Part shown: positions 2,394-28,986 of the stretch, piece after piece
Layout: each line of letters begins with the position of its first letter
Position numbering within the stretch: position 1 is the first letter of the stretch
Origin: Eledone cirrhosa
Taxonomy: Eukaryota
Assembly: GCA_964016885.1 (NCBI GenBank)
Contig: OZ024745.1
Span: 134,602,001-134,666,000 of the forward strand
DNA: 64,000 nt
Direction: 5' to 3'
Translations under genes and position numbers: made by a program
Notes under the pieces: model-generated
The model's input: only the letters and a program-made list of their open reading frames with translations
What the model was told of the DNA's origin: nothing
Databases searched by the model: none

Positions 2394-2811
2394 AGGTAAA
2401 TGTTTCGAAAAAAATGTAGTTGTTCTAATGCAGTTTATATATAATATCGTCTTTGTTTTAATGCGTAGTGGAACTACGTCGCACCTCGCAATACCAACAT
2501 TTGCATACGCAATAATGTCAAACTGACCAATGGGAGGTTGCGTATGAATACATGGGCAATCTCACTCTCTTGTTAAAAACCCGAGACAGTCGTCGGGTGC
2601 CAGACAGATCGACACAGTTAACGCGTGAAGACGTATCTATAAAAATGGTGACCTGGCTGTAAAGAATACATCCTTCACACACATAAAAAAAATGTCGAGT
2701 TTACAATAACACAATATTTTGTTTGCACATGGCATTTTTGTCCAATGTGGCGACCCACCTCCTATTTCTTCATCACTTATTCTCGCGCTTTTACTTTGGC
2801 CAACATAAGCG

Positions 2812-4560
2812 GCAAGGGAGACGCGCTGGAAAAGCCACTCCAACTCGCGGGGCTCACACCTGCGGCTGGCCAGCTCAGCGCCTATGGTGGTGGTGAGTAA
2901 GGAGGTAGCCCTGGGGCCGAGGACACCAGAAGTCTCCACTTCCAGGGGTACGACCGCAAACCTGTCGGAGAGCGACCGATATGTGAGGAGTTTGGCCCCC
3001 TCAGCCTGACGTGCAGCAGAACCTGGGCCAGTCGCAGACTGCACCAGGTTGCAGCTGCAGAAAGTGTCGGTGCAAGTGGCATCCCAGACGAGGGGTTTGC
3101 CACCGCGGAACGGGAAGATGGTCATGCCATCTGGCCTTTTGCCGTCCCCTGGAGCTGGGAAGGGAAGCCTGCAGCGTCCAAGCCATGCTTAATGACTTCG
3201 TTGAGGGCAGCATGGCGTGGATTGCGGCTGGCACTGTGGCGACAGGAAAGCGGGTGGAGGCCGAAAGAGTTCATGGTGGAACGGCAGCGACATTGGTGTG
3301 AGGCCGAGCCTCAGGGAAACGCCGATGCGCAAGCTATGGTTGTCTAGCTGCGTGCCAGTGGAGAAGGCGGCCAAGCGTTCTCTGAACACAGAGGGTTCTG
3401 TTTTGTTTTGAAGAACCCTGCTGATGAGGATGTGGCACGAGGTTACCGACGAAAGATACGCCGGCAAAGCTAGTGAGATCTGGGACTGGAGGCCAAGGCC
3501 ACCATACCTGACAGGTAAAGTTGCATATCTCCTCGGCTACTGCTCGGATACAAGTATCGAGCTCAGCGAGGAGAGATGTCTGTGTGTAGCACAGAGTGTA
3601 TAGAGGAACTTCGGCATGGCATAGCAGTTCCTCAGTAGAAAGAGAACTGGGTGGCCATCAATCAAGCCCAGTCGGCTCGTGAGAGTCTGGACTTGATGGT
3701 GGACCTGATGGTGGAGCGGGTGGATTGGTGAGGGCATCCTCTTTGGGGGTCACCTGAACCTGGCGGAGAATGGACCGCACGTCCAAGACGGAGACTGCAA
3801 AGCTTGCAGCATCGAGGCTGACATTCACCACCTCCGACTTGGCTGAGTTGACCTGGAGGTCGATTCCCGCCAGGGCAGGAACCACCGATTGAAGGTCATG
3901 GCAGACCGCCTGTACGGGCCCACCCAAAGTAGCATCATCCAGATACCAAACGTTGAGAGGGGCCGTTATACTCCGGGCGATGTGGTCAATACCAAGGGTG
4001 AACAGGAGGGGTCCCAAAGGGTTGCCCTGTTGGATCCCAGTAGCCGAGGGTATGACCGTATCAGCAGCAAGGCGCATGCTCGGGGCTCCATATGACAGCT
4101 AGGCAGAGGGGGCTCGGCTGAGGCAGGCCTCGAGCAGATGATCCCAGCGTAAAGAGTTGAAGGCATTCCTCATGTCAAACTTGACAATGAGGTGGCTGGA
4201 GTCCCTGGATGCCGGTTCAGAGTGTTACGGACTTGCAGATCACCTTGGCAGCCAGCCTCCGGAAGACATTGCCCACAGCAATGGGGCGTATGCCAATCTC
4301 TTTCTTCCTGAGAGCGGTGAGGCTGGCCGAAAAAAAGAGGCCTCGAGCATAAGAGTCCAGGGCGCCATGGATGAGCCTATTGGTGAGCGCCACAATTGCA
4401 CTCAGAAGGCGGCGCCCGGCCTCAGCGGAGAGGGGAGATATCAACTCCTTGAGGAGGCCTAGTCAGAGACCATCAACATCTCCGCAGCTGCTAGCTGGGA
4501 AGGACCTGATGGCGGACATGATGTCTGCATCAGAAGCCACAAGGAGCAAGTGTGGATTAC
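2812..4560 (-). mobile_element. CRE-clade non-LTR retrotransposon (RT + restriction-like endonuclease), decayed and truncated at both ends
   Basis: GC-rich segment with motifs IRPIAVGNVFRRLAAK, GIQQGNPLGPLLF, WYLDD, DGMTIFPFRGGKPLVWDATC and WLFQRVSLA. It has an internal deletion of about 235 bp relative to the 25.3-27.4 kb copy. Confidence 0.85.
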
Positions 4561-6699: not shown

Positions 6700-9594
6700 T
6701 ACAAAGCTAAATCTAACCTAAATCTAAGTTAATCTAAGCTAAATCTAGGCTAAATCGAAGCTAAATCTAAGCCAAATCGAAGCTAAATCTAAGCTAAATC
6801 TCACCTACATCTAAGCTAAATCTAACCTAATCTTAGCTAAATCGAAGCTAATTCTAATCTAAATCTAACCTAAATCTGAACCTAATCTCAGCTAAATCTG
6901 AGGTAAATTTTAGTTAAATCTAAGCTAAATCTTAGCTAAATCTAAGCTAAATAAAAGCTATATCTTAGCTAAATCTAGGGTAAATCTTAGCTACAGCTAA
7001 GCTAAATCAACACTAAATCTAAGTCAAATCTCAGCTAAATCTAACCTAAATCTAACCTAAATATGAGCTAAATGTATGGTAAATCTCGCCCAAATCTAAT
7101 TTAAATATAGGCTAAATCTAACCTAAATCTCATCTAAATCTAAGCCAAATCTCAGCTAAATCTAAGCTAAATCTGATGTAAATCTAAGTTAAATCTCAGC
7201 TAAATCTCGGCTAAATCTAAGCTAAATCTAAACTAAATCTAAGCCAAATCTAAGCTAATTCTAAGCTAAATCTAAGCATAATCTAACCTAAATCTAAACT
7301 AAATCTAACCTAAATCTTACCTAAATCTAAGTTAATCTAAGCTAAATCTAGGCTAAATCGAAGCTAAAGCTACACTAAATCTAAGCCAAATCTCAGTTAA
7401 ATCTAAGTTAAATCTAAGCTAAATCTCACCTAAATCTAAGCTAAATCTAACCTAAATCTTACCTTAATCTAAGTTAATATAAGCTAAATCTAGGCTAAAT
7501 CTAAGCTAAATCTTAGCTAAATCTAAGCTAAATCTCACCTATATCTAAGCTAAATCTAAGTTAAATACAAGCTAAATCTAACCTAAATATTAGCTTAATC
7601 TACGATAAATCTCACATAAATTTAAGTTAAATCTAGGCTAAACCTAAGCTTAATCTAAGCTAAATCTATGCTAAATCAAAGCTAATTCTAAGCTAAATTT
7701 AAGTTAAATCTAAGGTAAATTCACATAAATCTAAGCTAAATCTGAGCTAAATCTCACCGAAATCTAAGCTAAATCTCACCTAACCCTCAGCTAAATCTCA
7801 CATAAATCTAAGCTAAATCTCACCTAAATCTAACCAAAATCTTAGCTAAATCTAAGCTTAATCTAAGCTAAATCTAAGGTAATTCTAACCTAAATCTACG
7901 CTAAATCTAAACCAAATCTCAGCTAAATCTAAGCTAAATCTAAGCTAAATCTGAGGTAAATCTAAGTTAAATCTAAGCTAAATCTCACTCTAAGCTAAAT
8001 AAAAGCTATATCTAAGCTAAATGTAGGCTAAATCTCAGCTAGATCTAAGCTAAATCAACGCTAAATCTCACCTAAATCTAAGCTAAATCTAACCTAAATC
8101 TTAGCTAAATCTAAGCTTAATCTAAGCTAAATCAAATTCTAACCTAAACCTAAGTTAAATCTAAACCAAATCTCAGCTAAATCTGAGGTAAATCTAAGTT
8201 AAATCTAAGTTAAATCTAAGCTAAATCTCACTCTAAGCTAAATAAAAGCTATATCTAAGCTAAATGTAGGCTAAATCTAAGCCAAATCTCAGCTAAATCT
8301 AAGGTAAATCTAAGCTAAATCGAAGCCAAATCTAAGCTAAGTATTAGCTAAATCTAAGGTAAATCTCGCCCAAATCTAATTTAAATCTAGACTAGACCTA
8401 AGCTAGATCTAAGCTAAATCTCAGCTAAATCTTAGCTATATCTGATGTAAATGTAAGCTAAATCTAAACTAAATCCTAATTTAAATCTCAGCTAAATCTT
8501 AGCTAACCCTCAGCTAAATCTAGCTAAATCTAAGCTAAATCTAAGCTAAATCTAAGCTAAATCACACATAAATCTAAGTTAAATCTAGGCAAAACCTAAG
8601 CTTAACCTAAGCTAAATCTAAGCTTAATCTAAACTAAATCTAAGCTAAATCTGACCTAATTCTAACCTAAATCTAAGCTAAATCTGAGGTAAATCTTAGT
8701 TAAATCTAAGCTAAATCTTAGCTAAATCTAAGTTAATCTCACCTAAATCTAAGCTAAATAAAAGCTATATCTAAGCTAAATCTTAGTTAAATCTAAGCTA
8801 AATCAACACTAAATCTCAGCTAAATCTAAGCTAAATCTCACCTAAATCTAAGCTACATCTAAGCTAAATCTGATGTAAATCTAAGTTAAATCTCGGCTAA
8901 ATCTAAGCTAAATCTAAACTAAATCTTAGCCAAATCTAAGCTAAATCAAAGCTAATTCTAAGCTAAATCTCACCTAAATCTAACCTAAGTCTAAGCTAAA
9001 TCTAAGCATAATCTAACCTAAATCTTAAGTAAATCTAAGCCAAATCTTAGCTAAATCTAAGCTAAATCTAAATTAAATCTAAGCTAAATCTAACCTAAAT
9101 ATTAGCTCAATTTAAGCTAAATCTAGGCTAAATCTGATCTACATCTAAACTAAATCTCAGCTAAATATTAGCTAAATCTAAGCTAAATAAAAGATAAATC
9201 TAAGCTACATCCCCACCTAAATCTAAGCTAAATATAAGCTAAATCTAACCCAAATCTAAGGTAAATCTTACCTAAATCTAAGTTAATCTAAGCTAAATCT
9301 AGGCTAAATCGAAGCTAAAGCTACGCTAAATCTAAGCCAAAACTCAGGTAATTCTAAGCTAAATCTAAGCTAAATCTTAGCTAAATCTAAGGTAAATCTC
9401 ACCTATATCTAAGCTAATTCTAAACCAAATCTCAGCTAAATCTAAGCTAAATCTGAGGTAAATCTAAGTTAAATCTAAGCTAAATCTCACCTAAATCTAA
9501 GCTAAATAAAAGCTATATCTAAGCTAAATGTAGGCTAAATCTAAGCTAAAGCTAAGCTAAATCAAGACTAAATCTAAGCCAAATCTCAGCTAAA
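6700..9594. repeat. 11-bp satellite (TAAATCTAAGC)n, about 2.9 kb
   Basis: Roughly 260 diverged monomers with recurring variant blocks. Confidence 0.95.
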
Positions 9595-10885
9595 GTCCTG
9601 GATTGAACTTACAGACAAGGTTCTCACCATCTCTGGTACTTCCCACTAAGCTACCGAGACTGACACAAAGACTTACTGAAAATTAATTTTTATAAACCTA
9701 CTTTCATTTTTAATTTTCCTTTTACGTCTCTTAGAAAAAACTGAAAATCTTTGGTGAGAACCCCAATGTCTATTTATCTAATATAATTTAATTAATTTAA
9801 TTTAATTTAGTTAAATTGTCGAAACCACTGGTGATCTAAAGATGGAGGAGACAGATAAAATAGACATATTGTCTCCTCGACCTTTAGATCTTCAATGTTT
9901 TCGACAATTTAACTAAAATAAAAAATGAAATTAAATATAATTAAATAAATAGGGGTTCTCTTTTTCAAAGAGATATAGAAAGAAAATTAAAAAAAGATTA
10001 ACATTACACCTTACATGTATCACATGGACCAGGATTGAACCTCAGTCCTCAATTCAACCCTCAGACCAGGACTGAACAGGATCTCACCATCTCTGGTACT
10101 TCACACTAAGCTACCGAGACTGACACAAAGATTTACTGAAAATTAATATTTATAAACCTACTTTCAAAATTCAATTAATAAAATTAATTTTATTTTGAAA
10201 GTAGGTTTATAAATATTAAATTTGAGTAGACCCTTGTAGCAGTCTTGGTGGCTTAGTGGGAAGTACCAGAGATGGTGAGATCCTTGTCTGTAGGTTCAAT
10301 CCAGGACATGGGTTCAATCCTTGCTTGGACACATGTCTAATGTTTCCTTTTTACATCTCTTAGAAAAAACTGAAAATCTTTGGTGAGAACCCCAATGTCT
10401 ATTTATCTAATATAATTTAATTAATTTAATTTAATTTAATTTTTATTTTAGTGAAATTGTCGAAACCACTGGCGATCTAAATTTGGAGGAGACAGATGAA
10501 ATAAACATTATATTATCTCCTCAACCTTTAGATTGGCCGTAGTTTCAACAATTTAACTAAAATAAAAAATTAAATTAAATATAATTAAATAAGTAGGGGT
10601 TCTCTTTTTCAAAAAGATATAGAAGGAAAATTAAAAAAGATTAATATTATTCCTTATGTGTATCTCAACGGCCAGGATTGAACCTTAATCCTCGATTCAA
10701 TGCAGAGACCACAATTGAACACTGAGACCAGGATCTCACCATCTCTGGTACATCCCATTAAGCTACCAAGACTGACACAAAGATTTACTGAAAATTAATA
10801 TTTATAAACCTACTTTCAAAATTAAATTAAATTAAATTAAAAATAAAATGAAATAAATCGACATTGGGGTTCTAAACTTTAATAT
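9595..10885. mobile_element. Cluster of palindromic elements with tRNA-like heads (one rearranged copy and one full copy)
   Basis: Heads GGTGGCTTAGTGGGAAGTACCAGAGATGGTGAG..GGTTCAATCC occur in both orientations. Central hairpins lie at about 9810-9914 and 10450-10558. Confidence 0.7.
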
Positions 10886-11299
10886 ATATATATTTCTCAT
10901 TCTTTCTTCTGATGAAGGACTAGCGTCCAAAGACCCTCTTCCTGCTATATCAAGTGTACCGATATACTGTACCGATTGTGTTGTTATTTCTGTTTAGCTT
11001 TTATATACATATATAACTGATAGCAGATGTTCTGGTGAAATAGTGGTTTTACTGCTACAGATTGTAATGGAACTCTTGGTGGACACAATTGTAAAGTAGG
11101 AATGGATGACAGTGTAAGACTGATGTCGGCAAAAGAAAATTGTGTCTATATATATATATATAATTGTTACACAAGAGATATAATTAGATTAATTAAAGTT
11201 ATAATGAAGACAGACATTAGATTAATTAAAGTTATAATGAAGACGGCGGGTACTCGGTGTCATTGAGAATGATTCAACTCTCTTACCGGTGTCATCAAT

Positions 11300-11600
11300 C
11301 CCGTAAGGATGAAAGGGTAATTCAACTCAGATCGTAAAGAGAGGTAAATCTATGCTTCAAAGCATGCCGTCCGACCCTCTACCAATACTGCCAATCCATT
11401 GCCAGAGGTATTTTAAATAATTGTTTCTACTTTTGGCATAAGACCAGCAATTTACACAGTGCATTACTGGTACTTTATTTTATCGATCCCGTAAGGATGA
11501 AAGGCAAAGTTAACATCGACGGGATTTGAACTCAGACTGTAAAGGGACGTAACTATGCTGGAAAACATGGCATCCAACTCTCTACTGATACTGCCAAATA
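11300..11600 (-). mobile_element. Two decayed tRNA-derived SINEs with a Nin/Deu-like domain
   Basis: The minus strand has CTTTCATCCTTACGGGATCGATAAAATAAAGTACCAG and a B box GAGTTCAAATCC. Related fragments occur at about 1280-1340 and 41100-41195. Confidence 0.6.
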
Positions 11601-12060
11601 ATAAAGAGTCATGATAACAATAACCTGAAATATAGGATTACGTTGACTATACGGAATGACCAGTTATATTAAATGGTGAACCAACAAACCTAAATGTATA
11701 TATATATATATACAAGAGGGAGAATGATAGTCTGACGGTCTTCCAGTTTATTCCGAAGTCTGTACAAAAGATTTGCTGTTGATTGTATAACTAAGTTGTA
11801 ATGGATAATATGACTGCTATTTCTAGCAGTAAGAGAGACTACATAGAGGTTTTCTATTGATGTATAATTGATATTTTACTGAGTGATACTTTCTGATTTA
11901 CAATCAATTAAATACGATTGGAACTGTGTCTGAAGGTATTCAATTATATCAGGGACTTTTAATGTATGACACCGGTACGAGAGTTAAAACATTCTCAACG
12001 ACACCGCATACCTGCTGTCTTCGTTATAATTTTAATTAATCTAATTATATCTTGTGTAAC

Positions 12061-12094
<34 letters not shown>

Positions 12095-12098
<4 letters not shown>

Positions 12099-12439
12099 TC
12101 ATCATTTTATCATCATCATCATTTTACGTCCGCTTTTCCCTGCTTGCAAGGGTGGGACGGGAACTGATTCTGGCTTGATTTCTACAGCCGGATGCCCTTC
12201 CTAACACCAACCTCATTTACAGTGAGTGCTGGGTGCTTTTTTGCCGTGGCACCTCCACGACCACTTTGCAGTGGAATGATATGGACCCCAGTCCCTATCA
12301 TGTCATTTCTACAGCTGAGTAAACTGGAGCAATGTGAAATAAAGTGTCTTGCTCAAGGAAACAACACATCACCCGGTCTGAGAATTGAACTCACAACCTT
12401 TCGATTGCAAGGCTCTAACCACTAAGCCATGTGCCTCCA
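12095..12439 (-). mobile_element. CORE-type tRNA SINE with RTE tail
   Basis: Near-identical to 5185-5543 and inserted in a (TA)n tract. Confidence 0.85.
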
Positions 12440-12989
12440 TATATATATATACATACACACACACAATTTTCTATCCCCGACATCGGACTTGCACTGTCAT
12501 ATCTATTTTTGCTTTACAATTGTGTCTACTAGGAGTTCCATTACAATCTGTGGTAGTAAAACTACTATTTCACCAGAACATCTGCTATCAGTCATTTATA
12601 GACAATATATATACTTTAGACCACATATCAACCTAATATATATATATTTCCTATCAAATCTGTAGCTAGACATAAAGTCAGCCTCACTACTTCATTCTGA
12701 CAAGATATCAATTTATGACTAAAGATGAAGAAGATACACGAACGTTAATGTCGTGAAATAAAGCTGATAACATCTTTGAAACTTCTAATTTGATAACAAA
12801 GAGATTATTTCTTTGGTTGTTTAGTAACAACTAACAACACAACACATTGATTATATTTGAAGGAGGTAAGTTGACAAAGATTTACTTAATGTCTTTATTA
12901 ATGTGTGTAAATAATATAATATAATTATGTGAACCTTTCAACGATACAGTAATTATATACATGAAAATATATATAACAACATTACCACT

Positions 12990-13575
12990 AATAGTAAATA
13001 CTATACTGTACATTAGCTAATGTAGTCCTTGATACACTGTATCTGATAGCCAATAATACTAACTACTGTACATTAGATAATGTAGTCCTAGATACACCAC
13101 TATGGCACACAGCCACTAATACAAACTACTGTACTGTAGATTAGATAATGTAGTCCTAGATACACTATGTCTGAGAGCCACCAATACTAACTACTATACT
13201 GTACAGTAGATAATGTAGTCCTAGATACACTATGTCTGAGAGCCACTAATACTAACTACTGTACTGTACATTAGATAATGCAGTCCGAGATACACTATGT
13301 TTGATAGTCACTAATACTAACTACTGTACGTACATTAGATAATGTAGTCTTAGATACACTATGTCTGATAGCTACTAATACTAACTACTGTACTGTACAT
13401 TAGATAATGTAGTCCTAGATACACTATGTCTGATAGCTACTAATACTAACTACTATACTGTACACTAGATAATGTAGTCCTAGATACACTACGTCTGATA
13501 GCCACCAATATTAACTACTGTACTGTACATTAGATAATGTAGTCCTAGACTCCCCATGTCTGATAGTCACTAGTA
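12990..13575. repeat. 65-bp minisatellite, about 9 copies
   Basis: TAGATAATG recurs at about 13142, 13207, 13272, 13336, 13401, 13466 and 13531. Confidence 0.9.
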
Positions 13576-14204
13576 TATACGCAGTTCTCAGGGCGATTCA
13601 GCGAGACAAAACAAGACCGCCCGGTCTGGGATTCGAACTCACGAACCATACATTCTTAAATTACGCGCTATCACCGCGTAAACCCGGTGTCCTCCACACA
13701 AAATACACCAGAATAATTTAACCCGGATTAATTCACGAACGAGATTTACAATAATTCGCTGAGAGTGATCTCCCTTGGCTGATTTTAAAATCTTTTCTTC
13801 CATTAGAAATTAATTTGTTTCATGTCTGACTGAAAGACTCTGGAGTTTTTACCTGTCTTGGGTTTAATTAATGAGGAATTTTGAGGTATTTATAACAATT
13901 ATTAATTATTTCATTACTGAGATATCATTTGAAGGACTTACTAATGTTTTTATTTATTAATTATTTTATTAGTAACTTAACATGTGGTTCTTGTATAAAA
14001 TTATGTTGGAAGATTTTAGGAAGATGCTATGTAGCCGGTCGCGGTAAAATAGACGCCCAGGCTATGTAGCCGGTAAGAGTGTCAGACTCCATGTGTTGCG
14101 GCCCTTTATGGTCTGAGTTAAGACAATTTAAAATCTTTTCCACCATCAATTGTTAAAAAACAAGTTAAAATCATTTTGTCGTCCATTTGTAACGTACGTT
14201 ACAC

Positions 14205-14862: not shown

Positions 14863-15699
14863 CATACATATTCATAAATAGACACACATTATACAAATAA
14901 TTATTACATACACACACATCTCTGTAATAATTCAGGAAGGAAGGGGCTGGTGAAACGCTATAGCAATGTGTGTGTGTTGTGTACCTTTCAGGTTTACCGG
15001 TTTCGTAGCCTATTTGAAGATTTTATTATAATTATGAACCTTATAATTCAATTAATTATGAATAATTTTGAGCTATTTATCACAATTGTTAGTTAATTAC
15101 TAACATAGTAACTTACCATATGGTTATTATATAGAATTTTGTTGGAAGACTTTAATTTAGATAGGAACCATTTCCATAGAACGAGAACTAATTTTGGCTG
15201 GGTTTCTACCAAAAGGGTTAATGAAGAATTTTGAACAATTTACTAAAATTATTAATTATTTCATTACTAAGATAATGTGTGAATACACAATTATATGTGT
15301 GTATATATGTATATATATATAAACAGTATATATATATATAGTATATATATATATATAAACAGTATATATATATAGTATATATATATATATAAACAGTATA
15401 TATATAGTATACAAAAGATGTAGTGGGATAGTGTGTAGTCTTAAGACAAGTCTGTCCAGATAGCTGCGCTGTAACTTACACTTATTGGGACTGTGTGTTG
15501 GCAAGCAGGCCTGTATTTTGGGATCTAGCTGGTCCATTATGAGGGAGGTCTGGTTAGTTGGCAGCACCATGCCTTACTTGTGGTATATGTATGTATAGAA
15601 ATAAGTTATTGTATATGCATAACTGTCCATCTATATGTATACATGTATGTTTACGTATATCTTTGCATACATATATACATTTTCAGATGTATACACGTA

Positions 15700-17620
15700 A
15701 TGGTCACCCGGATAGTAAACCAAGTCATACAGAATGGGGTTGTTCTGAAGGACTGGCGTAGCAGCATCATCATTAACTGTTACAAGGGTAAAGGAGACGC
15801 CCTAGATAGGAGTAACTATAGAGGCATTAAATTAATCGACCAGGTCATGAAGGTCACGGAAAAAGTAATAGCGCAACTAATCAGAGAGAGAATTGATCTA
15901 GATGAAATGCAGTTCGGGTTTGTGTCAGGTAAAAGTACCACAGACGCTCTTTTCATTGTACGACAACTACAGGAGAAGTACCTAGCTAAAAGTAAACCCC
16001 TATACTTAGCTTTTGTTGACTTGGAGAAAGCCTTGGACAGAGTCCCCCGTTCCATTATCTGGTGGGCTCTTAGAAAACTAGGTGTTGAGGAATGGCTTGT
16101 GAGAGCTATACGAGCCATGTATAAAGAAACAGTCAGCAAGGTTAGAATTAACAATGAATATAGTGAAGAGTTTAGCGTAAAATTTGGTGTTCATCAGGGC
16201 TCCGTCTTTAGCCCCCTATTATTTATTATTGCCCTTCAGGCTATAACAGTGGAGTTCAAGACCGGCTGCCCATGGGAACTCCTATACGCAAATGATCTAA
16301 CGCTCATAGCTGAATCAATGGCCGAGCTAGAGAAGAAATTCCAAACATGGAAGCAAGGCCTAGAATCAGAAGGCCTTAAAATTAACCTGGCTAAGACTAA
16401 AGTTCTAGTTTGTAGGAAAGAAAATAAGGCGCCGGTCCCTTCCGGGAAATGGCCATGCTCAGTGTGTAGGAAAGGCGTAGGTAGAAACTCCATTTTATGT
16501 CCCAAATGCAAAGTATGGGTTCATAAAAGATGTAGTGGGATCACAGGTAAGCTAACTAAGAACATAGATTTTACATGTGGCCGGTGCTCTGGTGCAATAA
16601 GTAGCAGCAAGTGCCCACAAAATACTAGCTCTTTCAATTGCGCAGAGGGTTCTATAGAAATAGTGGACAGCTTCCGTTACCTGGGTGACAAAATCAGCAG
16701 TGGGGGAGGGTGCTCTGAAAGTACAGTAGCTAGAGTCAGAACTGGATGGAAAAAGTTCAGAGAGCTTATACCACTATTAGCCGCTAAAGGGTTCTCCCTA
16801 AAAATGAAAGGCAGGTTGTATGATGCCTGCATATGAACAGCAATGTTGCATGGCAGTGAGACCTGGGCATTGTGTGCAGAGGATATATGCAAACTAGAGA
16901 GGAACGAAGCTTGCATGCTTCGCTGGATGTGTAATAGTAATATACGTGAACGGCAAAGCATAAACGAACTAAGGGAAAAATTAGAAATAAGAGGGATCAG
17001 ATGTTGTGTACTCGAGAGAAGACTACGTTGGTATGGTCCACGTGATGCGCATGAAAGACGACAGCTGTATAAAAAAAATGCAGGGCAATAAAGATAGACG
17101 GTAGCCACGGAGTAGGCAGACCCAGAAAAACCTGGGACGACTTGATAAATTCCGACCTCACACACTTACACCTCTCCAAGACAATGTCACTGGACCGAGA
17201 TCTTTGGCGGTGCTCAGTAATAGAGAAGACCCGCCTTACCTAAATACAAAGTAAAACCTACTACAGTCAGTAGGCACCTCTAACAAAATACACCCCCACC
17301 CCATCCACACCGCCCCTTTCACTGTAAAGTTATGTTGGTGCCACAACATCCAGGCCGAAACAAATGAGGTCGTGTAGGTGTCACGACAAAAAAAAAAACA
17401 CACAGTCCACGCAGTAATGTGGCCGTGTAGGTAACACGGTAAAAACTCCCAGTCCCACACTGTAAATGTGGTTGGTGTTAGGAAGGGCATCCAGCTGTAG
17501 AAAACCCGCCAGACAGTCCTATGCGAGCAAGACAACCACTCTTGCCTCAAGTGGGAAAACTCCCGTCCAAACCCATGCAAGCATGGAATATAGACGTTAA
17601 ACGATGATGATGATGATGAT
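15700..17620 (+). mobile_element. RTE-clade LINE, 5'-truncated, inactive (long-3'UTR subfamily)
   Basis: RT motifs NYRGIKL, QFGF, FVDLEKA, GVHQGS, a mutated catalytic YAND and FRYLGD. There is an in-frame stop at 16834, and the tail ends GACGTTAAAC(GAT)n. Confidence 0.95.
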
Positions 17621-17639
17621 ATATATATATATATATATA

Positions 17640-18403
17640 TATATTCCTTTGACATTTCTTAGAAAAAAAATGAAAAAGTTTTGTGAGAACCCCAATGTTT
17701 ATTTATTTTATTTTATTTTTAAATAAAATTAATAACATTAATTTTATTTTGAAATTAGGTTTATAAATATTAATTATCAGCAGACCTTTGTAGCAGTCTA
17801 GGCGGCTTAGTGGGAAGTACCAGAGATGGTGAGGTCCTTGTCTGTAGGTTCAATCGTTGCTGTAATGTGTCCTGTTAATCTTTTTTTCAACTTTCCTCAG
17901 AAAAAATGAAAATCTTTGGTGAGAACCCCAATGTCTATTTATCTAATATAATTTAATTAATTTTATTTTATTTTACTTTAGTTAAATTGTCGAAACCACT
18001 GGTGATCTAAAGTTAGAGGAGACAGATAAAATAGACATATTGTCTCCTCAACCTTTAGATCTTCAGTGTTTTCGACAATTTAACTAGAATAAAAAATTAA
18101 ATTCAATATAATTAAATAAATAGGGGTTCTCTTTTTCAAAGAGATATAGAAAGAAAATTATAAAAGATTAACATGACACCTTACATGTATCTCATGGACC
18201 AGGATTGAACCTCTGTCCTCAATTCAACCCTCAGACCAGGATTGAACACCCAGAACAGGATCTCACCATCTCTGGTACTTCCCACTAAGCTACCGAGACT
18301 GATACAAAGATGTACTGAAATTTAATATTTATAAACCTACTTTCAAAATAAAATTAAAAATAAAACGAAATAAATAGACATTGGGGTTCTAAACTTTAAT
18401 ATG

Positions 18404-18448
<45 letters not shown>

Positions 18449-18568
18449 CTTTGACATTTCTTAGAAAAAAAAACTGAAAAAGTTTTGTGAGAACCCCAAT
18501 GTCTATTTATTTTATTTTATTTTTAATTAAATTAAAAATAAAATGAAATCGACATTGGGGTTCTAAAC

Positions 18569-18610
<42 letters not shown>

Positions 18611-18770
18611 CTTTGACATTTCTTAGATAAAGAAACTGAAAAAGTTTTGTGAGAACCCCAATGTCTATTTATTTTATTTTATTTTTAAATCAAATTAATC
18701 AAATTAAATTAAATTAAAAATAAAATGAAATAAATCGACATTGGGGTTCTAAACTTTAATATATATATAT
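17640..18770. mobile_element. Full palindromic tRNA-head element (about 17640-18400) plus two internally deleted copies separated by (TA)n
   Basis: Each copy starts TTCCTTTGACATTTCTTAG and ends CATTGGGGTTCTAAACTTTAA. The central hairpin is at 17980-18085. Confidence 0.75.
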
Positions 18771-18772
18771 AT

Positions 18773-21670
18773 ATGGTGGATAAGATAATAAACGTAAATA
18801 TAGCGAATGACAGAATAATTAAAATAAGACTTGTTCTAAATAGAACTACGGTGACAGTAATATCTGTGTACGTGCCCCAATCCGGACTGCCCGGCACTAT
18901 AAAAGACAGATTCTATGAGACACTGATGCTCACTACCTCCCAAATAACCGACAGTGACTATATAATTATTGCTGGCGACCTAAATGGCCACGTTGGACAA
19001 CATTGTGACGGCTATGAAGGAATCCACGGAGGCTATGGGTTTGGTGAGGAAGGCTCCAGAATCCTGGAATTCTGTGACGCAAATAACCTAACTATCTGTA
19101 ACACTAACTTCAAAAAACGAAACAATCACTTGATCACCTATAGATCTGGGGACACACAAGCCAGGTAGATTATATCCTTACCAGGAGACGTGACAGAGTG
19201 TCTGTTGTAAACACTAAATCCCTCCCCCATGAAGAATGCAACTCCCAACATAGACTGATAATTAGCGACCTCATAGTCAGGACGAGACGTACTCGACAGC
19301 AGAAGAGGACTATCCTCAGGAGAAAAATATGGAAGCTAAAGGACCCCACAAACAGAAATAAATTTAAAAGCATATTACTTGATGCTTTCGACAGTAAGGA
19401 AGAGCATTTAGAGTCGTACAATATAGAGGAACAGTGGGAATTCCTGAAAGCAAAGCTGCTGATGGCGGCAGACAAAGTCTGTGGCTGGAGCAGACCTATA
19501 GGCAGGAGGAGAGTAACTTGGTGGTGGAACAGTAAGGTGGAGGAGTCAATTAAGGCCAAAAAGCAGGCTTGGAAAGTATAGCGGGAAGGGGGAAGTAGAG
19601 AAAACTATCAAGTGGCCAGGAGGGAAGCTAGGAGACAAGTGTACTTCTCAAGAAGGGAAGCAGAGAAAAGAAAGTTCAAGCATGTTCTACAACGCGAGGA
19701 CCAAAAACATGAGGTGTTCAGGATTGCTAGGCAATGTGTCAAGGAAAACCGTGATATTGTCGGGGAGAAGTGTGTCCTTAATGATGATGGTGTACTTGCC
19801 ATCACTGACGCTGATAAGAAGGTAGCTTGGAAGTGTCACTACGAAAGGCTACTAAATGAGGAGAATAAATGGGAAAAAGACAGTCTCCCCCACATCAACC
19901 CAATAGAGGGACCAGCAGTGTTAGTCAAAGGTAGTATAATAAGTAAGGCAATCAAAGACATGAAGACGGGTAAGGCGGCTGGGCCTTCGGAAATAGTTGC
20001 TGAAATGCTGAAAGCTTCTGGAACGGTGGGACACACCATGGTCACCCGGATAGTAAACCAAGTCATACATAATGGGGTTGTTCCGAAGGACTGGCGTAGC
20101 AGCCTCATCATTAACTGCTACAAGGGTAAAGGTGATGCCCTAGATAGGAGTAACTATAGAGCCATTAAATTAATCGACCAGGTCATGAAGGTCACAGAAA
20201 AAGTAATAGCGCAACTAATCAGAGAGAGAATTGATCTAGATGAAATGCAGTTCGGGTTTGTGTCAGGTAAAAGTACCACAGACGCTCTTTTCATTGTACG
20301 ACAACTACAGGAGAAGTACCTAGCTAAAAGTAAACCCCTATACTTAGCTTTTGTTGACTTGGAGAAAGCCTTCGACAGAGTCCCCCGTTCCATTATCTGG
20401 TGGGCTCTTAGAAAACTAGGTGTTGAGGAATGGCTTGTGAGAGCTATACGAGCCATGTATAAAGAAACAGTCAGCAAGGTTAGAATTAACAACGAATATA
20501 GTGAAGAGTTTAGCGTAAAAGTTGGTGTTCATCAGGGCTCCGTCTTTAGCCCCCTACTATTTATTATTGCCCTTCAGGCTATAACAGTGGAGTTCAAGAC
20601 CGGCTGCCCATGGGAACTCCTATATGCAGATGATCTAACGCTCATAGCTGAATCAATGGCCGAACTAGAGAAGAAATTCCAAACATGGAAGCATGGCCTA
20701 GAATCAAAAGGCCTTAAAATTAACCTGTCTAACACTAAAGTTTTAGTTTGTAGGAAGGAAAATAGGGCTCCGGTCCCATCCGGGAAATGGCCATGCTCAG
20801 TGTGTAGGAAAGGAGTAGGTAGAAACTCCATTTTATGTCCCAAATGCAAAGTATGAGTGCATAAAAGATGTAGTGGGATCACAGGTAGGCTAACTAAGAA
20901 TATAGATTTTATATGTGGCCGGTGCTCTGGTGCAATAAGTAGCAAGTGCCCACAGAATACTAGATCATTCCATTGCACAGATGGTTCTATAGAAATAGTG
21001 GACAGCTTCCGTTACCTGGGTGACAAAGTCAGCAGTGGGGGAGGGTGCTCTGAAAGTACAGTAGCTAGAGTCAGAACTGGATGGAAAAAGTTCAGAGAGC
21101 TTATACCACTATTAGCCGCTAAAGGGTTCTCCTAAAAATAGACGGTAGCCACGGAGTAGGCAGACCCAGAAAAACCTAGGACGACTTGATAAATTCCAAC
21201 CTCACACACCTACACCTCTCCAAGACAATGTCACTGGACAGAGATCTTTGGCGCTACACAGTAATAGAGAAGATCCGCCTTACCTAAGTACAAAGTGAAA
21301 CCTACTACAGTCAGCAGGCACCTCTAACAAAATACACCCCCGCCCCACTACCCCCACCCTATCCACTACACCACCCCTTTCAGTGTAAAGTTATGTTGGT
21401 ACCACAACGTCCAGCCCGAGACAAATGAGGTCGTGTAGGTGTCACGACAAAAAAACACACAGTCTATGCTGTAATGTGGCCGTGTAGGTAACACGGTAAA
21501 AACCTCCCAGTTCCACACTGTAAATGTGGTTGGTGTTAGGAAGGGCATCCAGCCATAGAAAACCCGCCAGACCGTCCTATGCGAGCAAGACAACCACTCT
21601 TGCCTCAAGTGGGAAAACTCACATCCAAACCCATGCAAGCGTGAAATATGGACGTTAAACGATGATCATG
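18773..21670 (+). mobile_element. Near full-length RTE LINE (APE endonuclease + RT + PHD-like finger), pseudogenised
   Basis: APE motifs SVYVPQ, AGDLNGHVG, QHRL and WWWN, and an intact YADD. Stops fall at about 19166, 19579, 20854 and 21133. About 290 bp is deleted at about 21135 relative to the 15.7 kb copy. (GAT)n tail. Confidence 0.95.
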
Positions 21671-21679
21671 ATATATATA

Positions 21680-23062
21680 TATATTCCTTTGACATTTCTT
21701 TAAAAAAAAAACTGAAAAGGTTTTTATTTTATTTTATTTTTAAATAAAATTAATTAAATTAGTTATATTTTGAAAGTAGGTTTATAAATATTAATTTTCA
21801 GTACACCTTTGTAGCAGTCTTGGTGGCTTCGTGGGAAGTACCAGAGATGGTGAGGTCCTTGTCTGTAAGTTCAATTCTTGCTTGGAGACATGTCTAATGT
21901 GTCCTATTAATCTTTTTTTAATTTTTCTTTTACATCTCTTAGAAAAAAATGAAAATCTTTGGTGAGAATCCCAATGTCTATTTAACTAATATAATTTAAT
22001 TAATTTAATTTAATTTAAGAGACCTTTGTAGCAGTCTTGGTGGCTTAGTGGGAAGTACCAGAGATGGTGAGAACCTTGTCTGTAGGTCCAATCCTGGTCT
22101 GGGAGTTCAATCGTTGCTGGGAGACACATGTAATGTGTCCTGTTAATCTTTTTTAATTTTCCTTAGAAAAAAATGAAAATCTTTGGTGAGAACCCCAATG
22201 TCAATTTATCTAATATAATTTAATTAATTTAATTTAATTTAATTTTTACTTTAGTTAAATTGTCGAAACCACTGGTGATCTAAAGATGGAGGAGACAGAT
22301 AAAATAGACATATTGTCTCCTCAACCTTTAGATCTTCAGTGTTTTCGACAATTTAACTAAAATAAAAAATTAAATTCAATATAATTAAATAAATAGGGGT
22401 TCTCTTTTTCAAAGAGATATAGAAAGAAAATTATAAAAGATTAACATGACACCTTACATGTATCTCATGGACCAGGATTGAACCTGAGTCCTCAATTCAA
22501 CCCTCAGACCAGGATTGAACAGCCAGAACAGGATCTCACCATCTCTGGTACTTCCCACTAAGCTACCGAGACTGATACAAAGATGTACTGAAATTTAATA
22601 TTTATAAACCTACTTTCAAAATAAAATTAAAAATAAAACGAAATAAATAGACATTGGGGTTCTAAACTTTAATATGTATGTATATATATATATATATATT
22701 CCTTTGACATTTCTTAGAAAAAAAAACTGAAAAAGTTTTGTGAGAACGCCAATGTCTATTTATTTTATTTTATTTTTAATTAAATTAGTTATATTTTGAA
22801 AGTAGGTTTATAAATATTAATTTTCAATAGACCTTTGTAGCAGTCTTGGTGGCTTAGTGGGAAGTACCAGAGATGGTGAGATCCTTGTCTGTAAGTTCAA
22901 TTCTTGCTTGGAGACATGTCTAATGTGTCCTATTAATCTTTTTTTAATTTTCCTTTTACATCTCTTAGAAATAACTGAAAATCTTTGGTGAGAACCCCAA
23001 TGTCTATTTATCTAATATAATTAATTTAATTTAATTTAATTTAATTTTTATTTTAGTGAAAC
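21680..23062. mobile_element. Cluster of palindromic tRNA-head elements (half copy, full copy, half copy)
   Basis: Same modules as 17640-18400, with a hairpin at about 22253-22358. Confidence 0.75.
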
Positions 23063-23189
23063 CACTGTTGTATTCAAGAGACCAGGTGGAGGGGTGGGTC
23101 TGCTAGATTCATCGTGGGTAAAGAACGGTGCTATGAACTTTTCTGGGTGGGAAATGACAATGGGCTGGGTATACACATACCACCCCACC

Positions 23190-23408
23190 ACCCCACCGCA
23201 AAGTGGTCGTGGAGGTGCCACGGCAAAAAAGCACCCAGCCCGCTCTGTAAAGCTGACGTGGAGGTGCCACGGAAAAAAAAAAGAACCCAGCACTCACTGC
23301 AAACTGGGTTGGCGTCAGGAAGGGCACCCAGCTGTAGAAACCAATCCAGAATCAGCTCCCACCCCACCCTTGCAAGCATGGAAAAGCGGACGTATGATGA
23401 AGTTGATA
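23190..23408 (+). mobile_element. RTE-type 3' tail (LINE end or SINE tail) with an internal duplication
   Basis: CGTGGAGGTGCCACGG occurs twice, followed by GGAAGGGCA.CCAGCTGTAGAAAC and GGAAAAGCGGACGT. Confidence 0.7.
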
Positions 23409-23799
23409 TATATATATATATATTAGTATATATATACACATATATATATACACACATATATATCAGTGTACATATATATATACATATATATATATAAATG
23501 AATATTTATTCAATTTAAAGCGCCAATTATCTATATATATAACAAGATATGAATTTTTCTAGGGATGGGGAAATTTTTAGTTTGTTTTTATATTTTCACT
23601 TCATTTTTTACTTTCTATTTAATACAGTCTTTGATCCAATATAATCCTGACAGTATTTGAACCAGTTTACCTCATATATATGTATGCACACACAACACTC
23701 AAGTTTCGCCCTCTACTGCTATTTCATTCATATTTATTGTTTAATTAACTCTGATCTAATTCATCAACTATTGTTAATTATATTATTACGTAGATTTCT

Positions 23800-24800
23800 T
23801 ATAAAATCTAGTGCATATATACGTGTATATATACAGGGAGACACTGTAATAGATGTAAAGAGAGTGGGAGATAGAGTTATAGAAGTAAAGAGAGGGGGAG
23901 AAATAAGCGGTAGATAGAGTAATAGATGTAAAGAGAGGGTTAGAGCGTTCAACTTGACAGTCAGTACAATGTTCAGCATGGTAGCCAGTACATATGCCAA
24001 CAACCCAACCGGCCAGCCAGCCGTATTTGCGGTTGACTGGCCAGTTGGGCGGTTGGTATGTGGAACGTTCAACTACGCAGTCAGTACCAAAGTTCAACAT
24101 TGTAGCCAGTGCATATGCCGATCGCCGCGCCCTCTTTGCTCTATTTTAATGACCTGGAACTAAGTAAAAAGAGTAGGAGATAACTCGACAAGAGCGGAGA
24201 GGGTGAGATTCGAACCATGTAAAGTCATTGGCTCCTGAACTTCGTAAGCGGGGCTGCTACTGACTGAGCAACGCCGGCAGCAAGGCAAATCGCGCATAAA
24301 ATAACACTTATATCGAGAAAATAAAACAAAAATGTCAATGTTGCACTCTTCTTTGTTGTTCTTTTATTTTACGTAAACATTTCGCTGCTCTAGCCTCTTA
24401 TTTCCTATTAGATTACACTTAATTCCATTAAACATTCATTCTTAGTCTCGTGGTAAACTATTTCATCTATATTTATATCGCTGTTACAGCCTTTTATTTC
24501 TACATCTATCACCTATAGCCACTGTTACGCCGGTAGTATAAGTAGCTTTATAACAAGAAACGATGATATAACTCCACAAAATGTCTTCTTCAGCAAGACA
24601 CTTCACTTCATATTGCTCCAGTACACTGAGTTACACATAGACAGATACATACATACACATATATATGTACACAGATAGAAATAAGAGGTAGATGTAAAGA
24701 TAGTGTAAAAGATTTAAAGAGAGGGTGAGAGTGTGACACACATTTATCTGTCTATCTCTCTCTATTTTAACACCGGTCGTTATAATTAGTTTTATAACAC
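23800..24800. mobile_element. Putative non-autonomous element with short direct repeats, a GC hairpin and an internal tRNA-like segment
   Basis: AGATGTAAAGAGAG repeats, a duplicated block at about 23947 and 24066, and minus-strand TTGCTCAGTCAG...GGTTCGAATC at about 24205-24275. Confidence 0.4.
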
Positions 24801-25278
24801 CGCTATATTACCGACATGAAAGAGGTAAATAATTATTTCTTAAATGTTTAGAACATGTTTCTCTTGTCTTAAATGTATAGAACATGTTTCTTATTTATAT
24901 TCTTAACATAGCTAGGACCTTATCTCATTTACTGGTCTCTACTTTTAGGACTTTGCTGGTCCCATGTGCCCTCCATCAAGGCACACTCGTCCCTTCTCTC
25001 TCAGGCCCCGTACTAATTACTACACATACATATATATATTTATTTTAAGAAACCTGAATGACAAATAATATAAAGTGTTTGTAAAGTGGGGAAGAGTAGT
25101 TTTACGGTGGGGTTGTTATATAGATATCGTTTTTGCAGTGGGGTCGTGACTGGCGTATAATAATGAGTCACTGTTGATGTATATACAAATCATATTTTGG
25201 ATATAAGTGAAGTTATTTAAGAGATTTAGTTGTTTTGTATACATTCAAGTTGTTGTCTCCCTGTTTCTTCTTCAACAA

Positions 25279-27350
25279 CTATAACGGTACGCGATGGGGC
25301 CCACCCACAGCCCCGGTGGACAGAATGGAGAAGGCGTTTCCCCGGAGCACGGCAAGGGAGACGCGCTGGAAAAGCCACTCCAACTCGCGGGGCTCACACC
25401 TGCGGCTGGCCAGCTCAGCGCCTATGGTGGTGAGTAAGGAGGTAGCCCTGGGGTCGAGGACACCAGAAGTCTCCACTTCCAGGGGTACGACCGCAAACCT
25501 GTCGGAGAGTGAACGATATGTGAGGAGTTTGGCCCCCTCAGCCTGACGTGCAGCAGAACCTGGGCCAGTCGCAGACTGCACCAGGTTGCGGCTGCAGAAA
25601 GTGTCGGTGCAAGTGGCATCCCAGACGAGGGGTTTGCCACCGCGGAACGGGAAGATGGTCATGCCATCTGGCCTTTTGCCGTCCCCTGGAGCTGGGAAGG
25701 GAAGCCTGCAGCGTCCAAGCCATGCTTAATGACTTCGTTGAGGGCAGCATGGCGTGGATTGCGGCTGGCACTGTGGCGACAGGAAAGCGGGTGGAGGCCG
25801 AAAGAGTCCATGGTGGAACGGCAGCGACATTGGTGTGAGGCCGAGCCTCAGGGAAACGCCGATGCGCAAGCTATGGTTGCCTAGCTGCGTGCCAGTGGAG
25901 AAGGAGTATGGAGCCAGGGTATGGAGCCAGGGTATGGAGCCAGGCCCCACTGTGGGGTTTGGAGGCCGCACGAAAACAAACAAGGCGGTGCTGGTCGAGC
26001 TGGCGTGTGAGCCTGTCTGAGGCCAGCCTGCACTGGATGGCATCCCAAGTGTGTTGGGGGGACTTGACGTCAACAGGGGGAGAAGGAGGAGGGACGTCTA
26101 CTGGGCTAAGTCCCAGCCGGTCCCACGTCTCACAGGCGGCCACGCGTTCTCTGAACACAGAGGGTTCTGTTGTGTTTTGAAGAACCCTGCTGACGAGGAC
26201 GTGGCACGAGGTTACCGACGAAAGATACGCCGGCAAAGCTAGTGAGATCGGGGATTGGAGGCGAAGGCCGCCATACCTGACAGGTAAAGTTGCATATCTC
26301 ATCGGCTGCTGCTCGGATACAAGTATCGAGCTCAGCGAGGAGAGATGTCTGGGTGTAGCACAGAGTGTATAGAGGAGCTTCGGCATGGCGTAGCACTTCC
26401 TCAGCAGAAAGAGAACTGGGTGGCCATCAATCAAGCCCAGTCGGCTCGTGAGAGTCTGGAGCTTTTGAAGCCTGGACCTGATGGTGGAGCGGATGGCCGG
26501 CGGGTGGATCGGTGAGGCCATCCTCTTTGGGGGTTACCTGAACCTGGCGGAGAATGGACCGCACGTCCAAGACGGAGACTGCAAGGCTTGCAGCATCGAG
26601 GCTGACATTCACCACCTCCGACTTGGCTGAGTTGACCTGGAGGTCGATTCCCGCCAGGTCAGGAACCATCGATTGAAGGTCATGGCAGACCGTCTGTACG
26701 GGCCCACCCAAAGTAGCATCATCCAGATACCAAACGTTGAGAGGGGCCGTTATACTCCGGGCGATGTGGTCAATACCAAGGGTGAACAGGAGGGGTCCCA
26801 AAGGGTTGCCCTGTTGGATCCCAGTAGCCGAGGGTATGACCGTATCAGCAGCAAGGCGCATGCTCGGGGCTCCATATGACAGCTAGGCAGAGGGGGCTCG
26901 GCTGAGGCAGGCCTCGAGCAGATGATCCCAGCGTAAAGAGTTGAAGGCATTCCTCATGTCAAACTTAACAATGAGGTGGCTGGAGTCCCTGGATGCCGGT
27001 TCAGAGTGTTACGGACTTGCAGATCACCTTGGCAGCCAGCCTCCGGAAGACATTGCCCACAGCAATGGGGCGTATGCCACCCTCTTTCTTCCTGAGAGCG
27101 GTGAGGCTGGCCGAAAAAAAGAGGCCTCGAGCATAAGAGTCCGGGGCGCCATGGATGAGCCTATTGGTGAGCGCCACAATTGCACTCAGAAGGCGGCGCC
27201 CGGCCTCAGCGGAGAGGGGAGATATCAACTCCTTGAGGAGGCCTGGTCAGAGACCATCAACATCTCCGCAGCTGCTAGCTGGGAAGGACCTGATGGCGGA
27301 CATGATGTCTGCATCAGAAGCCACAAGGAGCAAGTGTGGATTACAATACA
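25279..27350 (-). mobile_element. CRE-clade non-LTR retrotransposon, 5'-truncated and frameshifted
   Basis: GGIRPIAVG, QQGNPLGP, WYLDD, LPVRYGGL, SGAWLHTL, KPLVWDATC and FQRVSLAVLRGNA, up to the stop at 25279. Confidence 0.88.
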
Positions 27351-27969
27351 AAACCTCTGATAATGATTTCTCAGATATTTCACCATAATTAATTTTCATC
27401 AATATATATTAATATTATTATTGTTTATTAGATCAGGTGGATTGGCCAGAACAATTCTACTCTTCTTTTTTAGATGTCACGATTTTTCATGGCATTCCTG
27501 AGATCATTAATCTCCAGCTGGAGATCCAGAGACATCTGATGTATGTAGGTGAACCTCAGTCATCCCACTTGGGTCTTACTATGTTTAGGTATCCACCACA
27601 GGAGCCAGCTCATCAGGTCATCCTACCCTCAGCAGCAATGTCCAGCATCTATTGACTTCCGCTCCCTAGTTATTGTGGTAATCTTCGATATCTGGGAATA
27701 TATTTCTTCAGCTTAAGGGAGTAATAAATATATAGTTTTAAAAAAAACATATATATACACACACATATATATATGTTGACATTTATAAGAGTTCTCTATC
27801 AAAAGCCTTCTCTATGTCCAAAGCTAAGTATAGTGGCTTATTTGTCTCTAAGAACCTCTCTTGTAGTTGTCTCACTAAGAAGAGGGCATCTGTTGTACTT
27901 TTCAGAGGCACAAAACCAAACTGCATCTCATACACATACATACATATACATACATACATACATATACAC

Positions 27970-28320
27970 ACATCATCATCATCATCATCATTTCGTTTTA
28001 AGTCCGCTTTTTCTCTGCTTGCAAGGGTGGGACGGGAACTGATTCTGGTTTGATTTCTACAGCTGGATGCCCTTCCTAACACCAACCTCATTTACAGTGA
28101 GTGCTGGGTGCTTTTTTGCCGTGGCACCTCAACGACCACTTTGCAGTGGAATGATAGGTACCCCAGTCCCTATCATCTCATTTCTACAGCTGAGTAAACT
28201 GGAGCAATGTGAAATAAAGTGTCTTGCTCAAGGAAACAACACATCACCCGGTCTGAGAATTGAACTCACAACCTTTCGATTGCCAGGCCAATGCTCTAAC
28301 CACTAAGCCATGTGCCTCCA
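27970..28320 (-). mobile_element. CORE-type tRNA SINE with RTE tail
   Basis: Duplicate of 5185-5543. Confidence 0.85.
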
Positions 28321-28986
28321 TATACATACATACATACACACACATACATACATACATACACATATACATATACATACATATACATACATATATATATACA
28401 TATATATATACATACATATATATATACATAATATACATATACATAATATACATATACATACATACGCATACACACATATACATAAGTATATATACATATA
28501 CATACATACATATATACACATACATACATATATACACATACATACATATATACACACACATACATATATACACACACATACATATATACACACACATACA
28601 TATATACACACACACATACATATTTACATACACACATATATATATTTATACATACACACATACACACATATACATACATACACACATATACATACATACA
28701 CACATATACACATATACATACATACACACATATACATACATACACACATACATACACACATATACACATACATATATACATATATACATACACATACATG
28801 CATATACATACATGCATATACATACATACACATACATGCATATACATACATACATACACATACATGCATATACATACATACACACACATACATGCATATA
28901 CATACATACACACACATACATACACATACATGCATATACATACATACACACACATGCATACATATATATATATATATACATACATA
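28321..28986. repeat. Compound TA/CA microsatellite
   Basis: Directly visible. Confidence 0.95.

Follow-up and report, generated by a model that had tools for sequence, protein, structure and literature searches.

Introduction

The editing of inverted repeats by ADAR, as described for pairs of human Alu elements, leaves clustered A>G changes in the paired arms together with a depletion of 5' G (PMC2873906, in the part available to us), and the accessible text on squid reports that repeats are widely edited in all the tissues examined (PMC9068888). We describe here an octopod foldback that bears a similar footprint, but whereas the editing of Alu pairs and of coleoid repeats concerns RNA only, the apparent edits of this locus are fixed in nuclear DNA and are inherited by its duplicates.

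Several other described systems come close to this situation. In Rous-associated virus, as in avian leukosis virus, A>G changes attributed to ADAR lie in an inverted-repeat region and were reverse-transcribed (PMC12925331, as far as its accessible text goes). Those sequences are viral and about half of their As are changed, whereas the octopod case would concern a non-viral transcript of the host, a non-LTR route, 7.5% of the arm As and a heritable product. Plant mitochondrial retroprocessing likewise involves an edited RNA that is reverse transcribed and integrated, its sites being fixed in DNA (PMC4987113, in the portion at hand), but it is C-to-U, it takes place in an organelle and it replaces the parent gene, whereas we deal with apparent A-to-I changes, in the nucleus, and in a new dispersed copy. 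The APOBEC editing of retrotransposons also fossilises deaminase footprints in repeats, and these have been found with pairwise and consensus filters (PMC4866542 and PMC2873906, both as available to us). Unlike the changes described below, the G>A clusters of APOBEC arise on cDNA and are not limited to arms; in the main text of PMC4866542, within its accessible part, the word 'ADAR' is absent and A>G is used only as a filter. Finally, the co-mobilisation of upstream sequence from an upstream promoter is known from the 5' transduction of L1 and SVA (PMC12593883, in whose accessible part the word 'editing' does not occur). It differs from our case in its carrier: the one here would be an RTE-like LINE, truncated and ending in (GAT)n, that took along 4.8 kb of flank from upstream. 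Active RTE LINEs have been reported in octopus (PMC9115989, in the part available).

As far as the sources at hand go, all the component processes, namely inverted-repeat editing, 5' transduction, retroviral hypermutation, mitochondrial retroprocessing and APOBEC footprints, are published; the foldback finding is real, and it is a variant of known processes. In the literature covered, which is incomplete and does not establish priority, we came across no description of a nuclear retrocopy in which A-to-I edits are fixed and whose source is unedited. In the portions accessible to us, retro terms do not occur in PMC7703385, and PMC5974252, PMC5365144 and bioRxiv 10.64898/2026.06.26.734816 held nothing relevant on edited retrocopies.

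The Copied Segment and Its Source Locus

The window, by which we mean the whole stretch of 64,000 nucleotides that was analysed, corresponds to G000:C5:134,602,001-134,666,000 in a 3.0-Gb assembly, and it lies about 0.1 Mb from the end of contig C5 (134,728,681 nt). It is pieced together, mosaic-like, from fragments of LINEs, SINE-like copies and satellites. Among these are about 265 copies of an 11-bp satellite at 6704-9594, present too in the duplicates on C6 and C1499, and a tandem array at 43701-64000 with a unit of about 3.35 kb, which has 98.7-99.6% identity and comprises LINE fragments and microsatellites.

Within this mosaic, the segment 10891-17621 (+ strand) shows a sharp-ended identity with a locus on contig C12, and we read it as a putative retrocopy with 5' transduction. 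The locus on C12, at about G000:C12:24,867,270-24,873,930 on the minus strand, shares the whole foldback, and it differs from the segment at 78 of the 5254 compared sites, that is 1.48% (98.5% identity, tandem repeats left out). At the 5' end, the segment starts with a 5'-truncated piece of a dispersed repeat (10891-11015, + strand) that runs on upstream in the source locus: beyond the junction, the repeat goes on unbroken in C12 and in 11/11 aligned family copies, but in the window (AT)n takes its place. The junction itself has a TAT microhomology with the source, and it belongs to the left half of the target (10856-10892, + strand), a host repeat that terminates in (AT)n. At its 3' end, the segment is made of a 5'-truncated LINE (15690-17621, + strand), with a reverse transcriptase fragment matched on the + strand by Pfam RVT_1 (E=1.8e-27), a 3' UTR and a (GAT)n tail; by its repeat tail and its motifs, this LINE is a putative RTE-like element. 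The identity with the source ends exactly after the (GAT)n of the LINE at 17621, the LINE being in sense orientation, and there the right half of the target follows (17619-17670, + strand), which flank comparison resolves into (AT)n and then the continuation of the host repeat.

The two flanks in the window are indeed the two halves of one repeat, and the empty target site was judged from paralogous sites where this repeat is uninterrupted, at 18397, 18571, 22670 and L036:2430 (C6). At 21684, a further LINE copy stops at a junction like this one, and about 12 of the 20 (GAT)n-type LINE tails listed pass into an AT-rich microsatellite, as judged by eye. The (AT)n site of this one AT-rich repeat is an insertion hot spot, where several different inserts are found, some of them with LINE-type tails (10856-10892, 17619-17670, 18397-18775, 21660-21700 and 22670 in the window, and loci L036, L039 and L042).

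The upstream continuation on C12, the target halves in the window and the end on the LINE tail all point to C12 as the source and to the window as the copy, and the anatomy of the insert reads as that of a 5' transduction. Compared with its source, the copy shows no intron loss and no poly(A), its largest missing stretch being 18 nt; an unspliced RNA ending in the repeat tail requires neither of the two. The insert is flanked by (AT)n on both sides, where a target-site duplication is unreadable, though compatible. With an illegible duplication and no intron loss, the junction anatomy is not a proof of an RNA step, and since both junctions touch an AT-rich microsatellite, a DNA-level copy could yield the same ends. 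In the list of open reading frames, inspected by eye, neither a promoter nor a host gene came to light near the source.

Geometry of the Foldback

Realignment puts the outer arms at 11016-11145 and 12461-12592 (both described on the + strand), just where the earlier note had drawn them, and it gives the same 12 G-U against 1 A-C transition mismatches, with 7 Gs in the left arm and 5 in the right. To these are to be added 3 transversion mismatches and a 2-nt indel, absent from that note. The inner arms, at 11163-11295 and 11966-12062 (+ strand), were said to have about 4 G-U against 3 A-C, a count that we did not recover: they have 3 G-U, 4 A-C and 5 transversions, so that G-U is not in excess when these arms are compared directly. 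Their register is blurred by a 33-bp duplication in the left arm. Between the two right arms, a (TA)n tract and a SINE-like insertion (12064-12460, + strand) split the right-hand repeat copy.

The 12:1 split is modest by itself (binomial p=0.0034). A masked scan of 717 kb, which is less than 0.03% of the genome, returned 90 inverted repeats, some rows being redundant. Eight or more transitions are present in 34 of them, among which the outer arms show the strongest skew, and correction for these 34 brings the probability to p=0.12. When the 34 are pooled, foldback included, they hold 195 G-U and 228 A-C. The split is thus suggestive alone, and it becomes decisive once the changes are polarised.

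The arms had been regarded as the terminal repeats of one element. They are instead two inverted copies of a dispersed repeat, lying inside the apparently retroposed segment of 6.7 kb. A foldback or MITE-type DNA transposon with terminal inverted repeats was rejected, since a single outer arm is all that is present in most of the 26 family copies; these single-arm copies continue from the outer arm into the sequence of 12600-12700, and the complete two-arm foldback is found only in the source locus and in the window. Rfam gave no meaningful match in the arms or in a family copy, and the folding of 10891-10990 is not unusual (z=0.45). At 10908-10935 and 12719-12750 lie motifs that resemble a hammerhead core, possibly akin to that of Penelope-type elements; Rfam has no match there, and the first of these copies in the window misses 7 nt that the family copies have.

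Polarity and Clustering of the A-to-G Changes

The arm is a member of a dispersed repeat with 582 candidate copies, of which the best 40 of 582 were scored. Six of the 7 left-arm Gs are A in 25-26 of the 26 other family copies, and all five right-arm Gs correspond to a + strand A in 25-26 of 26. As the family copies were chosen by their likeness to the G-bearing arm, the selection bias runs against this result, not for it. The left-arm exception is G11100, which is the family base in 26/26 copies, its partner at 12508 having changed from C to T. The earlier note had held that C-to-T changes on the partner arm, or left/right differences fixed in all copies, would speak against editing; the family copies have A at 11 of the 12 sites, as has the source locus, which bears the foldback too, at 10 of the 12. 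Because C12 already carries G12485 and T12508, only 10 of the 12 G-U pairs are new. The reading of the 12 pairs as edits stands for these 10, while G11100 is ancestral and G12485 was already in the source locus.

When the source is compared with the copy over the 262 sites of the outer arms, all 11 differences are an A in C12 and a G in the window, and there is no difference of any other kind; 11/89 As are changed against 0/85 Ts. The loops and the rest of the insert hold 11 A>G among 60 differences (p=3e-7 against the outer arms). The A>G changes lie at 11045, 11054, 11078, 11081, 11099 and 11104 in the outer left arm and at 12491, 12511, 12532 and 12552 in the outer right arm. Position 11043 is ambiguous and was left out of the edit count because it is G in 42/42 family alignments; it is possible that an A-C mismatch was edited back to G there. 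The inner arms, once set against the source locus, add three further A>G, at 11245 and 11248 on the left and at 12023 on the right, the last being a site that no sister copy covers. The insertion that splits the right-hand copy has zero lineage A>G. A motif with both Gs of 11078 and 11081 is found at 4 places genome-wide, which are the window and three duplicates.

When the 78 source-copy differences were polarised with sister duplicates and unrelated family copies, 39 of them proved to be source-derived and 18 fell on the copy's stem; 15 are private to the window, 5 stayed unpolarised and 1 belongs to the stem or the window. On the copy stem, 12 of the 18 changes are A>G, every one of them in the paired arms, and the addition of 12023 brings them to 13; among the six other apparent changes of this branch, 2 have mixed outgroups and 2 have one sister only. 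Lineage A>G is found at 13/173 arm As against 0/1429 As outside the arms on the stem (p=1.8e-13), or against 1/1429 if the window-private A>G at 17212 is counted (p=2.3e-12), and p=2.1e-11 is obtained with 17212 counted and 12023 dropped. The converse change, T>C on the + strand, affects 0/158 arm Ts. The strand on which the A>G changes sit, the + strand, is the sense strand of the LINE, which would have served a reverse transcriptase as template.

The 1.9-kb LINE part has no polarised A>G on the copy stem. The A/G differences that it does contain were considered as edits and rejected: an independent LINE copy on C2 agrees with the window, which makes them source-side G>A changes, several of them at CpG. 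For this part (window 16050-17600), the 39 changes of the source lineage, read on the window + strand, include 11 G>A and 4 C>T, a skew that is possibly a methylation- or transcription-linked asymmetry.

RNA Fold, Neighbour Context and the ADAR Enzyme

When the source stretch is folded as RNA, each of the 13 changed As is predicted to face a U of the opposite arm. On the + strand, the fold is predicted to be about as stable in the source (-623.8) as in the window (-623.4), while that of the - strand weakens from -663 to -610 kcal/mol.

ADAR prefers 3' G and UAG. Compared with the 173 arm As, the 13 changed As are followed by G in 9 cases (p=4e-5) and stand in UAG in 5 cases, with only 9 UAG on offer in the arms (p=1e-4), and 8 of the 13 are preceded by U (p=0.02). 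A 5' G is found at 0/13 with the family base at 12022 and at 1/13 with today's source, in which the 5' G of 12023 is source-derived (p=0.06-0.07). The neighbour bias was said to favour editing, and so it does through the enrichment of 3' G, UAG and 5' U, while the lack of a 5' G, which goes in the direction expected, is not significant alone. A depletion of 5' G is a published signature of ADAR (PMC2873906, in its accessible part).

In the assembly, PF02137 matches were found on C1, C6 and C25. The match on C6 reads as an ADAR2 deaminase exon with HAE and PCG motifs and an intact-looking domain. This domain is 95% identical to the ADAR2 of Octopus vulgaris, against at most 72% for the other named matches listed, from which we take the animal to be an octopod; the Atlas search confirmed the deaminase family only.

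The G Alleles in Genomic DNA

The absence of the sites from genomic DNA had been named as a further observation against editing. The Gs do stand in several genomic copies and in contigs of the public run X1. They are shared by the duplicates on C6, C1499 (two copies) and C18 wherever the arms are kept; the copies on C5, C6, C18 and C1499 are otherwise about 0.7-0.8% apart, and the source keeps A. Among 20 further sister loci, 19 are without both arms and 1 has the right arm only. A Logan contig of run X1 matches 11016-11205 with no other letter at depth 407, and a second contig matches 11216-11298, again with no other letter; the library type of this run is unrecorded, and the assembly itself may have been made from its sample. 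A different study provides a RAD-seq DNA run, where non-A letters occur in 7/107 reads at 12532 and 6/111 at 12552, a weak indication in which the letter is not given.

The sister copies have lost different stretches, 11263-12495 in the C1499 copies, 11638-13767 on C6 and 10891-13860 in most others, and with them one arm or both; instability of the inverted repeat in DNA would lead one to expect this. The block that includes the LINE part recurs, about 99% identical, at many contig ends (at least 40 matches). It is found near the ends of C6, C8, C9, C10, C13, C15, C18 and C19, and also at 32.7 and 35.0 Mb on C11 and on C1499; the two C11 sites are far from the ends of that 53.9-Mb contig, which may reflect a fusion or a misjoin.

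Search for Further Cases

A second clear case of editing was found neither in the 717-kb scan, nor in a 245-kb scan against repeat families, nor with the genome-wide double-G motif. In the masked 717-kb scan, no other skewed inverted repeat was below p=0.09. Three inverted repeats of C12, skewed 4:42, 0:25 and 2:20, were rejected as (TA)n microsatellites with strand-skewed interruptions, and once these artefacts had been found, simple repeats were masked in the inverted-repeat scan. Such (TA)n tracts (G000:C12:24,926,000-24,941,000) mimic an extreme G-U/A-C bias, and genome-wide screens must mask them. The scan that uses the repeat families as a yardstick covered 245,383 positions and gave 14 cluster rows: two are the foldback, one is a SINE copy (23253-23379), two are the matching arms of one C12 repeat with shared variants, and in the remaining ones 5-6 changes of the G>A, C>T or T>C kind are clustered.

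A G-rich SINE-like copy at 23150-23410 (- strand) has 10 A>G among its 24 differences from family copies. It was not counted as editing: three of the changes have a 5' G, none is in UAG, and most of the Gs are fixed in 10/10 copies. A search for its source gave 0 matches, and this copy could be an older editing fossil or a subfamily. It sits in a unit of about 5.9 kb (23066-29063), and a 35-nt marker taken from it occurs 252 times, the occurrences listed being mostly in tandem arrays near contig ends. Fragments of a second type of LINE, at 2637-3188 and 25871-26882 (- strand), have a weak RVT_1 match (E=1.3e-5) and a frame with what we take to be a restriction-like endonuclease motif; this LINE lies upstream of the G-rich copy in the 5.9-kb unit.

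A Probable Route from an Edited Transcript to Heritable DNA

On the strength of these sequence comparisons, we consider it highly probable (about 0.9) that ADAR edited one read-through transcript and that a LINE reverse transcriptase then copied it into heritable DNA. At the source, two copies of the dispersed repeat lie inverted, 0.7-1.3 kb apart, upstream of the 5'-truncated LINE. A + strand transcript from an upstream promoter would have crossed the foldback and reached the 3' end of the LINE. Its arms would have paired, and the pattern of the changes suggests that ADAR deaminated about 13 of the 173 arm As, on both strands of the stem. The junctions suggest that a LINE reverse transcriptase worked in trans and started at the (GAT)n tail, priming on the (AT)n site near the end of C5; it would have read inosine as G and stopped after 6.7 kb, at 10891. 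As the copy was inherited and duplicated, the cell was probably one of the germline or of the early embryo. The copy was later duplicated as DNA to other chromosome ends, and most duplicates have lost the foldback; the block would have spread through exchanges between these ends, mostly once the foldback had been deleted. The earlier note had itself proposed that both arms of one folded transcript were edited and copied back into DNA, and this proposal is supported, every check that was named against it having come out in its favour.

The rival explanations share the small remainder between them. One, itself improbable, is a DNA-level copy by microhomology between AT-rich microsatellites, in which the adenines of a single-stranded DNA hairpin were deaminated by ADAR or chemically, with no RNA involved. 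The AT-rich microsatellite at both junctions and the lack of intron loss would agree with it, and ADAR is able to act on the DNA strand of RNA:DNA hybrids (PMC12925331, in the accessible text). However, the 3' end coincides exactly with the LINE tail, and LINE copies too insert at the place where the segment sits; the editing of the cDNA strand in a hybrid predicts + strand T>C all along the insert, and 0/158 arm Ts are changed; and in what is left of the four later DNA duplicates examined, the arms have gained no further A>G cluster. It also counts against such a copy that ADARs are not known to act on DNA:DNA duplexes. Less probable still is an artefact of assembly or polishing, by which edited RNA reads or miscalled bases would have entered the consensus: the region is repeat-rich and close to a contig end, and run X1, of unrecorded library type, may come from the assembly's sample, but the same Gs recur on C5, C6, C18 and C1499 in copies about 0.7-0.8% apart with A at the source, the short-read contigs agree with the G version, and the RAD-seq DNA run has its non-A reads at 12532 and 12552 (7/107 and 6/111, weak).

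A chance cluster of A>G, produced by ordinary mutation, reverse-transcriptase error or GC-biased conversion, is as improbable as an artefact and already largely refuted. What it can call upon is a raw 12:1 split that is not significant after correction (0.12) and a source lineage whose 11 G>A among 39 changes imply that local spectra can be skewed. It has to face a polarised clustering with p about 2e-12, a trinucleotide bias with p=1e-4, the absence of the T>C counterpart and the absence of stem A>G from the 1.9-kb LINE part of the same event, and arm-to-arm conversion would erase mismatches, not make them. The least probable explanation is that a + strand RNA duplex is maintained by selection, with G-U as the only mismatch tolerated, which had been put forward as the other reading of the arms and which we do not find supported. 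The predicted energy of the + strand fold does remain nearly constant (-623.8 to -623.4) while the - strand weakens (-663 to -610 kcal/mol). Selection only filters, however, and it cannot lift A>G to 11-12% of the outer-arm As on a branch with about 0.1% of other change; C>T, which also yields G-U, is absent from the copy stem; through the changes, A-U pairs have become G-U wobbles within a single short branch; and the further sister loci have not kept the duplex, 19/20 being without both arms and 1 having the right arm only.

What an Edited Retrocopy Would Mean

The foldback is non-coding repeat DNA without any sign of function, and it represents a single event. A-to-I editing in animals is normally regarded as non-heritable, and this locus provides, in a heavily editing lineage, an unusually clean natural pair of before and after, with an unedited source and an apparently edited genomic copy. 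If the editing of a transcript followed by its reverse transcription is the right explanation, ADAR acts on retroposition-competent RNA in the cells that found the next generation, and the LINE enzyme copies through an edited stem, reading inosine as G. The case also bears on the question of why edited As often become genomic Gs, for which the accessible text of PMC7186786 leaves room for 'an unknown molecular mechanism'; since a dispersed copy leaves its parent site unchanged, the foldback gives no answer to that question. It does offer a screen that needs genomes only, namely for source-copy pairs with one-strand A>G clusters in paired arms.

A broader proposition, which we hold as tentative and rather doubtful, is that octopod LINE reverse transcriptase repeatedly captures ADAR-edited host transcripts of the germline, the genome holding a fossil editome. 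If that were true, past editing would have left many records, each dated and each from a single molecule, and RNA editing would have a mutational route to heritable A>G, which could also reach coding retrocopies.
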